Part shown: positions 1 through 1,496 of the stretch, piece by piece
How the letters are laid out: the number at the start of each line of letters is the position of its first letter
Numbering within the stretch: position 1 is the stretch's first letter
Assembly (NCBI GenBank): GCA_026982555.1
Contig: JALSGT010000097.1
Span: 1-59,400, forward strand
Direction: 5' to 3'
DNA from: Chromatiales bacterium
GTDB lineage: Bacteria; Pseudomonadota; Gammaproteobacteria; SZUA-152
DNA length: 59,400 nt
Notes under the pieces: model-generated
Database searches by the model: none
Seen by the model: the letters and a program-made list of their open reading frames with translations, nothing else
What the model was told of the DNA's origin: nothing
Made by a program: the position numbers and the translations under genes

Positions 1-99
1 TAGCCACATATCAGGCGTAAAGCAATATAGTGCTTCGCGGTGTTTCCTGTACAACATGCATCTGCAAATAGATGCGGGTTACAACGAATGGCAAGGAGC

Positions 100-243
100 T
101 TACATGCCGCCGCCCATACCACCGCCACCACCACCCATACCACCGCCGCCGCCCATACCGCCACCGCCGCCGCCCATACCGCCACCGCCGCCGCCCATAC
201 CGCCACCGCCGCCGCCCATACCGCAGTCTTGTCCCATACCCAT
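100..243 (-). CDS. 47-aa Gly/Met-repeat microprotein MGMGQDCG-MGGGGGG-MGGGGGG-MGGGGGG-MGGGGG-MGGGGGG-MGGGM (below the ORF-track size cutoff)
   Basis: Hand translation of the minus strand: ATG at 243-241, TAA at 102-100. SD GAGGAG (256-251) lies 7 nt upstream with an A/T-rich spacer. Gly is encoded almost entirely by the common GGC/GGT codons with third-position variation. Confidence 0.6.
   Translation of the reverse strand: MGMGQDCGMGGGGGGMGGGGGGMGGGGGGMGGGGGMGGGGGGMGGGM
103..222. repeat. Imperfect tandem repeat, about 21-nt unit (CATACCGCCACCGCCGCCGCC), about 6 copies
   Basis: Directly visible; unit lengths stay multiples of 3 (21 or 18 nt). Confidence 0.9.
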
Positions 244-279
244 AATAAATCTCCTCTCAGGTTTACTGTTAAATTTACG

Positions 280-313
280 ATGTACTCATTGTTTATGAGT
301 TCGATGAGTACAT
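280..313. promoter_or_regulatory. Perfect 10-bp inverted repeat ATGTACTCAT-N14-ATGAGTACAT upstream of the microprotein gene (operator or 5'UTR hairpin)
   Basis: Inverted repeat seen directly; function inferred from position only. Confidence 0.3.
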
Positions 314-364
314 TTTTCGTCAAAAACAACATTGACTTTTTTGTGTTTTATCATCCCGTTGTCG

Positions 365-381
365 GGCAATGAACACGCCGA
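365..381 (-). promoter_or_regulatory. Candidate sigma54 (-24/-12) promoter pointing at the microprotein gene
   Basis: Minus strand reads TCGGCGTGTTCATTGCC, i.e. GG-N10-GC with TTGC. Imperfect match to TGGCAC-N5-TTGC. Confidence 0.25.
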
Positions 382-1496
382 AAATCTAGCAGTGAGGTCG
401 TTTGTTGTCAATTTTTTAAGCTGTTTTTTTAAAGGGAAATACTACCCATAACTTATTGAGTTTTAAGGGGTTATTTTGTGCTTTATGCTGGGTTGACCTG
501 AGGGAAGTAAGGTAAAACAGAACATTTGGTTAGCGGGTAACCAGTTATTGAATTGATTGTCTGATATAGACAGTTTTTTATAATATATAACAATATATAG
601 TTTTTTATTACAGCGCTTGCCTGTCCGATAATTAACACAACAAAAGAGTTGATATGTGAATAAAGTAATCTAAAGAAGATGCTCTTATTTGTTGCCTGTT
701 TAAGGTGTCATGACAGATTATAAACCATAAGAATGCCCCAATAAAATTTTTATACGAAGCCTGCTCAATTATTCATGATTTTTTTCTGTGAGAGACAAGG
801 TTAAATACCTTTGCGCGAAAGTAATATTCAGCCTGATGGTCAGGTGTTTCATCTTCTGGATTATATGAGTGATGATAGTTGGCTGTTTTGTTATTTTTTT
901 CTCTGTTTTATCTGATGGTTTTGAGGTGGTTTTTTTTATTGATTGTGTTATTTATTGAGTCCAGACAGAAATAAACTTCTTTTGAAAATGAAAAGTTGAG
1001 ATATAAAAATATAAGTGATCTATTTTCTTTCGGTTTGTTTTTTACTTTCCGACATTTCAGGTTGAAATATTAATTATTTTTATTAGGTGTAACTGAGAGT
1101 GAGCATCATTGCAATAGTCAGGAATATTTGAATCTGTTTGAATAATGATGGTTGCATTTTTATGTGTTTTTTGGTAAAAATCAGGTGTCGGATATGCATG
1201 AAAGATAACGTTATTAATAAAAGACAATATCCTTATAAGTTAATAAACGGTATGAGGAATTTATGGTGAAAAGTAACGGTTTGTTGTTAGATAAATTAAA
1301 CAACTGTTTCTGAAGCATGTCTTTTAGCTGGTGGTGTTATTAGTCTCTCCGGGCGTTTGCGATGGCAGTATGACTGCATTCCGGAGCTTGAAGTAAGGCG
1401 TATTGCAAGTGCTAACGATATTTGGTGTTATTTATCGTCAGTAGTATTGCTCTATATTTTTATGTTCTGGTTCAGTGACGGAACCTGTGTCAATAA

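Follow-up and report, generated by a model that had tools for sequence, protein, structure and literature searches.

Stand-alone Gly/Met peptide genes associated with an MsbA-like ABC exporter in uncultured Gammaproteobacteria

The minus-strand stretch 100-243 of the window, encoding a peptide composed almost wholly of glycine and methionine, is on sequence grounds a genuine stand-alone gene, neither a groEL fragment nor a chance ORF. Related genomes show a family-wide association of predicted Gly/Met genes of this type with one ABC exporter paralog. The best explanation, which we favor by a modest measure, is a translated, leaderless, repeat-hypervariable Gly/Met peptide that is coupled to a dedicated ABC exporter and has a role exerted by bulk chemistry. 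The peptide is probably a new kind of exported peptide. The window, meaning the whole stretch of DNA that was analyzed, comprises 59,400 nucleotides and is the entire contig C97 of the source genome (G000, 73% complete).

The Gly/Met gene and its transcription unit

The features of the gene and of its downstream flank are listed below, with positions in the window unless contig C10 is named.

383..411, minus strand: sigma-70-type promoter, TTGACA-17-TAGATT, with the TG of an extended -10 element (10 of 12 matches, TG present)
244..376, minus strand: 5'UTR of about 133 nt with three helices; arms of the main hairpin at 313-304 and 289-280
251..255, minus strand: Shine-Dalgarno (SD) AGGAG, 7 nt 5' of the ATG of the Gly/Met ORF
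100..243, minus strand: Gly/Met microprotein ORF, 47 codons plus TAA (ATG 243-241, TAA 102-100)
106..224, no strand assigned: 21-nt tandem repeat (7 codons, G6M) within the Gly/Met ORF, 5.8 copies with 87% matches (Tandem Repeats Finder)
1..99, minus strand: conserved 3'UTR with a hairpin at 75-58; the transcript continues into contig C10
C10:6208-6161: intrinsic terminator, a 20-pair stem and T run, ending the peptide-gene transcript
C10:5344-5844, plus strand: Hsp20, convergent with the peptide gene
C10:3770-5257, plus strand: HtrA/DegP, downstream flank
C10:1579-3396, plus strand: MsbA-like ABC exporter, downstream flank

The product of the ORF, MGMGQDCGMGGGGGGMGGGGGGMGGGGGGMGGGGGMGGGGGGMGGGM (47 aa), contains 35 Gly, 9 Met and one Q-D-C. 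It opens with MGMGQDCG, continues with runs of five to six Gly parted by Met and ends in GGGM. Because the 35 Gly codons are GGC (19), GGT (15) and GGA (1), the repeat units differ at third bases only; the copy number of the 21-nt repeat varies among strains. The original prediction had described a complete 47-codon minus-strand ORF with Q-D-C as the sole exception, a good SD and repeat units that vary synonymously in frame, and the ORF with its AGGAG, the third-base changes among Gly codons and the period of 21 agree with it on each point. A six-frame scan of the source assembly (2.43 Mb, 162 contigs, 50% GC) for 20-aa windows with at least 17 G+M returned the window ORF, its overlapping copy where contig C10 ends, and one C-terminal tail without relation to the Gly/Met gene. 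This Gly/Arg/His/Met-rich tail, GGRGGHGHGRGGRGGRGGMGGGMMGGGRMGGR, ends an ORF on the minus strand of contig C38.

Contig C10 ends in 155 bases that are 99% identical to window positions 1-155, and it therefore supplies the downstream flank of the peptide gene. Two synonymous GGC/GGT changes within the repeat distinguish the copies, which indicates that the assembly broke there. In this flank, HtrA and Hsp20 stand between the peptide gene and the exporter. It had been supposed that the gene is transcribed toward modifying enzymes left of the window; C10 carries the convergent Hsp20, HtrA/DegP and the ABC exporter instead. The suggested inspection of the left-hand genes yielded an ABC transporter, but no radical SAM, YcaO or adenylation gene was seen in these 6.4 kb or among the eight ORFs scanned in the first 15.5 kb to the right. 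On that side, a 1.25-kb spacer is followed by a DUF98 chorismate-lyase-like gene, a PPTase gene and then sucA, sucB and lpd. The chorismate lyase and PPTase had been read as a biosynthetic context. For this genome that reading is not supported: DUF98/PPTase adjoin sucA-sucB-lpd, and their synteny with the peptide gene is confined to the genus.

The promoter element AAATTGACAA (-35) and TGCTA are invariant in all eight genus loci, and transcription is inferred to start near 376. The 5'UTR helices contain 18 pairs; 95% of the cells are paired, and six pairs are altered on both sides. Only 0-1 of 500 shuffles scored as high, and slid controls pair at 28-50%. In the 3'UTR, the hairpin at 75-58 has four compensatory pairs. 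Taken together, these elements show a complete predicted transcription unit with its own promoter, a structured 5'UTR, SD, ATG and an intrinsic terminator. Farther upstream, the spacer between the peptide gene and DUF98 (244-1496, 1.25 kb, 27-43% GC) is 75-80% identical between genus species. Well 5' of the promoter, it includes conserved blocks as well as inverted repeats; one of the repeats, TGGTTA-CCCGC-TAACCA at 543-527, has a compensating variant in locus L006.

These conserved and structured 5' and 3' UTRs raise the possibility, which we consider quite unlikely, that the locus is a regulatory RNA or leader in which the translation of a Gly/Met-rich ORF, or the structured RNA itself, is what matters. 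Such an element might sense the supply of Gly, Met or one-carbon units and control antisense read-through into the convergent gene. Consistent with this, codons one to five (ATGGGTATGGGACAA) hardly vary among the genus loci, even at third bases (identical in five of eight), a hint that the RNA, too, is under constraint. Classical attenuator leaders abound in the amino acids that they sense, and at most loci the gene is directed into the 3' end of either the exporter gene or hsp20. However, a convergent rather than a co-directional gene comes next, both here and at 13 of the 14 adjacent loci, and a single strong terminator follows, which is not the arrangement of an attenuation leader. The 3' hairpin is deleted in two of the eight genus loci. 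Between genera the UTR sequences diverge, while the G/M composition, SD and ATG persist, and a length range of 13-75 codons differs from that of known leaders. Rfam gave no credible match, the one MIR405 match being far below the gathering score and in an unrelated part of locus L007; a second search gave none.

Alleles, distribution and the GroEL tail

The alleles of the genus argue for a coding gene. The set consists of eight distinct ORFs from same-genus genomes and four further complete ORFs on metagenome contigs (of seven metagenome loci, five were complete, one of them repeating a known allele, and two were cut by contig ends). Their lengths are 13, 18, 19, 23, 39, 47, 48, 51, 57, 58, 58 and 61 codons, and in all 12 the frame stays open from the conserved ATG to a Met codon that is immediately followed by the stop. 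Alleles near the window's own (18, 47, 58 and 61 codons) differ by whole repeat units; in some others, GDI or GDIDF/M units or Ser/Asp-containing stretches replace Gly runs, and the frame is kept. Pooled over eight genus ORFs, the 154 Gly codons are GGC (80), GGT (67) and GGA (7), with no GGG, and variation within Gly codons is at the third base only. These patterns show that the length of the predicted gene shifts fast, apparently through in-frame slippage of triplet-based repeats, with start, frame and final Met-stop kept.

Frame-breaking indels, or loss of the ribosome-binding site or ATG in relatives, had been named as evidence against a gene. The frame and ATG are intact in all 12 genus alleles, but the SD, AGGAG in eight and AGGGG in two, is degenerate in the remaining two, and a Ser-containing Gly/Met ORF in genome G017 (L008:1418-1639) has one extra base (+1) in its repeat and so falls into two frames. 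The shift may be a real frameshift or an assembly error. The forecast of a stand-alone, undescribed coding gene is nonetheless well supported by the gene's own promoter, SD and terminator together with the frame of the 12 alleles; what did not survive of the forecast of a functional gene is its biosynthetic context in G000.

We also weighed whether the ORF could be a GGY/ATG triplet repeat that expands in intergenic DNA and is open by chance, or else a misassembled groEL tail. The low-complexity repeat does lie at a contig end and is a frequent site of contig breaks; over the GC-rich repeats no stop closes any of the six frames, and the G017 repeat contains the +1 shift. Against this, at least 12 assemblies show the locus in synteny, among them a 79-kb metagenome contig, and the promoter, SD, ATG and Met-stop are conserved, with third-base variation only. 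Non-repeat alleles keep the frame too, and the GroEL tails of relatives have another pattern and another location. A non-functional or artefactual origin is thereby largely refuted, and we regard it as extremely improbable. On the opposite strand, a Pro/Ile-rich ORF (2..298, plus strand, start at C10:6038) was rejected as a gene, since the antisense lengths range from 16 to 158 aa and the start is not conserved; antisense frames are open only because the Gly/Met repeat is without stops.

A strict Gly/Met pattern matched 15 of 41 related genomes, all of the window's family, and the reversed control pattern matched none of the 41. Other genera of the family, and further MAGs titled Gammaproteobacteria or Proteobacteria, carry Gly/Met ORFs whose UTRs are unrelated and whose SD lies 5-10 nt upstream of the ATG. 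The five N-terminal residues MGMGQ are conserved within the genus only, and other genera begin with MGGG. Variants include a pure (GM)n dipeptide repeat, GQ-containing and Ser-containing forms and a form with a central (AP)n linker. In a species-level collection, the matches listed were mostly GroEL/thermosome tails and C-termini of large proteins, and among them stand-alone ORFs occurred only in Gammaproteobacteria- or Proteobacteria-titled MAGs.

Some loci hold more than one such gene. In another gammaproteobacterial MAG (L230:1934-2567), two tandem Gly/Met genes, one pure G/M and the other with an (AP/AV)n linker, each have their own TTGGAGG SD and are convergent with the exporter. In genome G012 (L288:970-1128 and 1825-1923), adjacent genes encode a pure G/M peptide of 52 aa and a GQ/GM repeat of 32 aa, both convergent with Hsp20-HtrA. 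In genus g4 (L380:3018-5888, L381:1110-3812, L382:864-3581), GVGWMNGGGMGGGMGGGG-SEACNNVP forms the end of a protein of about 900-957 aa; these matches were rejected as stand-alone peptide genes, the Gly/Met stretch being the C-terminus of the large protein.

Database searches returned no relative. Seven Gly/Met peptides that were looked up are absent among about 15 billion predicted proteins. Pfam and NCBIfam gave no credible model match (NCBIfam only chance matches at E of at least 0.8, for one peptide), and a protein homology search (3497 candidates, none scored) and the ESM Atlas gave no homologue, although low-complexity correction probably masks matches. At the level of titles and abstract openings, the literature contained papers on GroEL tails and none on a stand-alone Gly/Met peptide. 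Within these sources, no family, database entry or publication describing the peptide was found.

The closest likeness is to the (GGM)n tail of GroEL/Hsp60, which is likewise Gly/Met-only, flexible, of low complexity and ended by Met, and in several relatives the peptide gene lies within two genes of groEL. GroEL tails are treated as functionally important and polyproline-II-like in two papers (PMC11978752, PMC12571646). Upstream of the Gly/Met ORF there is no Cpn60 body but the 1.25-kb non-coding spacer, and PF00118 was not found in the 73% complete source genome. In four of the five relatives searched, groEL is intact elsewhere, on another contig or parted from the peptide gene by the exporter. 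The GroEL ends of four relatives have GGM repeats and then MM (MGGMGGMGGMGGMM in three, MGGMGGGMGGMM in G005). A Cpn60 C-terminal tail was therefore rejected: the ORF has its own SD and promoter, contains no Cpn60 body and does not follow (GGM)n-MM. The original statement that no groEL body lies upstream is confirmed by the spacer, and a groEL 3' end, which had been named as a refuting outcome, is opposed by the promoter and the different tail pattern. In contrast to the tail, the peptide is a separate gene with G3-G9 rather than GGM between Met residues, hypervariable length and an ABC exporter pairing.

The exporter partner and neighboring systems

By its model scores, the partner exporter is a predicted MsbA-like ABC half-transporter, a paralog of MsbA. 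It reaches 325-397 bits against the MsbA model, and a true MsbA (743-778 bits) is encoded elsewhere in all five genomes checked. Its identification as MsbA, the lipid A flippase, was rejected on both counts, the equivalog cut-off of the model being 602 bits. The exporter has no peptidase domain and no membrane-fusion partner, and a PDB sequence search with it returned generic ABCB-type matches only, with no solved relative of peptide specificity.

Gly/Met ORFs lie within 8.1 kb of the exporter at 17 of 20 exporter loci, against none at 80 loci (480,707 bases) around unrelated ABC exporters. The control loci came from an exporter-alignment search on generic ABC motifs, which returned only unrelated exporters of 29-46% identity. 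At thirteen of the 20 exporter loci, a convergent Gly/Met ORF lies 132-513 nt beyond the exporter 3' end; at one, a co-directional ORF lies about 700 nt upstream. At three, the ORF is 2.9-8.1 kb off, with HtrA-Hsp20 (G000, G012) or a PqqD/ATP-grasp cluster (G005) between. Three loci are without a nearby Gly/Met ORF; one of these contigs stops 679 nt beyond the exporter. Genomes G004 (gap of 516 nt) and G002 (2.9 kb) also fit the pairing. Among 41 related genomes scanned at an ortholog threshold of E <=1e-120, exporter orthologs occur in 19, all in the window's family, and every one of the 19 has a Gly/Met ORF. With both linkage and co-occurrence, the pair has the gene linkage that marks a leaderless peptide with a dedicated ABC exporter. 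The original prediction had not anticipated this family-wide pairing.

The family genomes in which no exporter ortholog was found point the same way. Of these six, G008 and three g4 genomes have no stand-alone ORF, and G003 and G009 have short versions (13 and 23 codons) with the Gly runs lost and, in G009, the SD lost as well. Neither exporter nor Gly/Met gene was found in 16 genomes of other families. In the exporter tree (20 loci), a 100/100-supported clade pairs with the (AP)n-linker peptide type at three of its four loci, and several genomes hold two exporter/peptide modules, which shows that two predicted paralogous lineages of the pair exist. Gly/Met ORFs away from any exporter occur at G019:C51, G020:C93 and L165. 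Related genomes share gene order by descent, so the adjacency counts overstate independent support. Because these genomes are not independent, and because a convergent pair does not form an operon, the link is strong as an association, whereas the status of the peptide as cargo is inferred.

The neighbors suggest another role that we consider unlikely: a cytoplasmic proteostasis peptide, an unexported partner of chaperones that would act in trans as a free analogue of the GroEL tail, with the exporter merely syntenic. Besides the composition, this would account for the Hsp20 and HtrA genes that adjoin the peptide gene in G000, G002 and G012 (Hsp20 alone in G006) and for Hsp20 and a DnaJ-domain protein near it in G019 and G022; it is the recurrence of these proteostasis genes that keeps the role as a rival. 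An ORF with a GroEL-type tail also stands directly upstream of the exporter at 7 of the 20 loci, verified as Cpn60 in G005 and G017. However, in all seven intergenic regions read, groEL has its own terminator before the exporter, and the promoter of the peptide gene is sigma-70-like, not heat-shock-like. Moreover, a chaperone partner would leave unexplained both the decay of the peptide in G003 and G009, in which no exporter ortholog was detected, and the separate peptide type of each paralogous exporter clade. Just 5' of the exporter ORF in genus loci (L151, L291, L288, L286), after the groEL terminator, we observed a conserved TGTGGTAATCT-like element, possibly an extended -10.

A second neighboring system, detected in 10 of the 41 related genomes, is a five-gene cluster (L026:646-7381 in G003; also L027, L151, L152, L153, L154 and L155) that encodes a PqqD-like protein, an ATP-grasp ligase, an Orn/DAP-type PLP decarboxylase (FslC/LysA-like), a urea-transporter/M23 fusion and a TolC-like outer-membrane factor. 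A leader of about 120 nt before its PqqD gene is conserved in the genus and has no Rfam match, and no conserved precursor ORF was seen upstream of the cluster.

We think it very unlikely that the Gly/Met peptide is the RiPP precursor or scaffold for this cluster, whose PqqD-like protein would be the RRE. In G003 and G009 the peptide gene is directly 5' of the cluster and shares its strand; in G005 it is convergent at the cluster's end, and in G022:C116 it follows the cluster in the same direction. Glycyl-glycine endopeptidases are found among M23 domains, and by analogy such an activity would suit a polyglycine substrate. On the other hand, the ATP-grasp gene is present in only 10 of the 41 genomes and was not found in G000 (73% complete), G002 (99%), G006 (96%) or G017 (97%), all four of which have the peptide gene. 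A Gly/Met ORF is near only 4 of the 10 cluster loci examined (G003, G009, G005, G022:C116); among the eight that were fetched, two have one (G005, G022:C116) and six, some on short contigs, do not. The peptide has no conserved leader region, nor a conserved leader or follower around a variable core, and the tightest-linked genomes (G003, G009) have the shortest and most decayed peptides. In G000, no modifying enzyme or RRE of this kind neighbors the gene in the window.

Possible role and significance

In the favored explanation of a peptide coupled to its exporter, the product would be translated, would lack a leader or signal sequence and would be the cargo of the MsbA-like exporter or depend on it in some other way. 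As cargo, it would act in the envelope or outside the cell. Conservation of composition alone, not of sequence or length, suggests that bulk chemistry matters, namely that of a flexible polyglycine chain with many thioethers.

The relatives of the source genome are uncultured Gammaproteobacteria. DsrB scored above its cut-off in all five genomes checked, G000 included, and one locus has a flavocytochrome c sulfide dehydrogenase; these genes point to sulfur oxidizers. We conjecture, as a first choice, that the peptide could bind soft metals such as Cu(I), or absorb oxidants or reactive sulfur species, in an rDsr-type sulfur oxidizer. A second conjecture would be a GroEL-tail-like, weakly hydrophobic anti-aggregation function, and a third a structural polyglycine-II material.

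Several known systems can be compared with the pair. Staphylococcal phenol-soluble modulins with Pmt, and leaderless bacteriocins, are Gram-positive amphipathic helices of defined sequence. They share with the Gly/Met pair a small ribosomal peptide without signal or leader that adjoins an ABC exporter without a peptidase domain; here, however, the peptide is G/M-only and repetitive, the host Gram-negative and the gene convergent to the exporter.

Met-rich Cu(I)/Ag(I) motifs are found in the periplasmic copper proteins CopA/PcoA, in the CueO insert and in the 'Mets' motifs of Ctr1. The repeated M-x(n)-M thioether spacing with Gly, present in the window peptide by inspection, resembles them, as does the oxidizing compartment that would be expected. 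In contrast, most Gly/Met alleles are without His/Asp partners, there is no folded carrier protein, and no cop/cus/pco copper-resistance genes were seen in the loci read, only cutA1-dsbD, which in G017 lies 3.7 kb from the exporter. Likewise, the genes seen next to the exporter/peptide pair included none for copper, silver or methionine sulfoxide reductase.

The combination of a low-complexity, sulfur-rich peptide with an ABCB-type half-transporter also recalls phytochelatin or metallothionein with HMT1-type transporters, but the sulfur of the Gly/Met peptide is thioether rather than thiol, the peptide is gene-encoded, unlike phytochelatin, and the metal link is only putative. The sulfur globule proteins SgpA-D of purple sulfur bacteria have Sec signal peptides and are Gly/Tyr-rich. 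They too are small, Gly-rich, repetitive envelope proteins of Dsr-type sulfur oxidizers; the Gly/Met peptide has no detectable homology to them and is not Gly/Tyr-rich.

At its broadest, our proposal is speculative and, on balance, doubtful. The Gly/Met peptides may represent a new class of gene-encoded thioether polyglycine material, exported by a dedicated ABCB-type pump into the envelope of Dsr-type sulfur oxidizers. There it would coat or buffer elemental sulfur, polysulfide or soft metals, or else, outside the cytoplasm, counter aggregation without ATP in the manner of the GroEL tail, with its length tuned between strains by triplet-repeat slippage.

Gene callers overlook the Gly/Met genes, yet these are conserved, together with the exporter, in all five genera of the family that carry it. 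Having no Lys or Arg, the peptide would be invisible to standard tryptic proteomics, and similar peptides may therefore be widely overlooked. The family offers an example of protein length evolving by in-frame repeat slippage at constant composition, and a simple natural system for studying what a pure Gly/Met chain does. In the peptide, the GroEL Gly-Met tail, the function of which is debated, would have its first free-standing counterpart.
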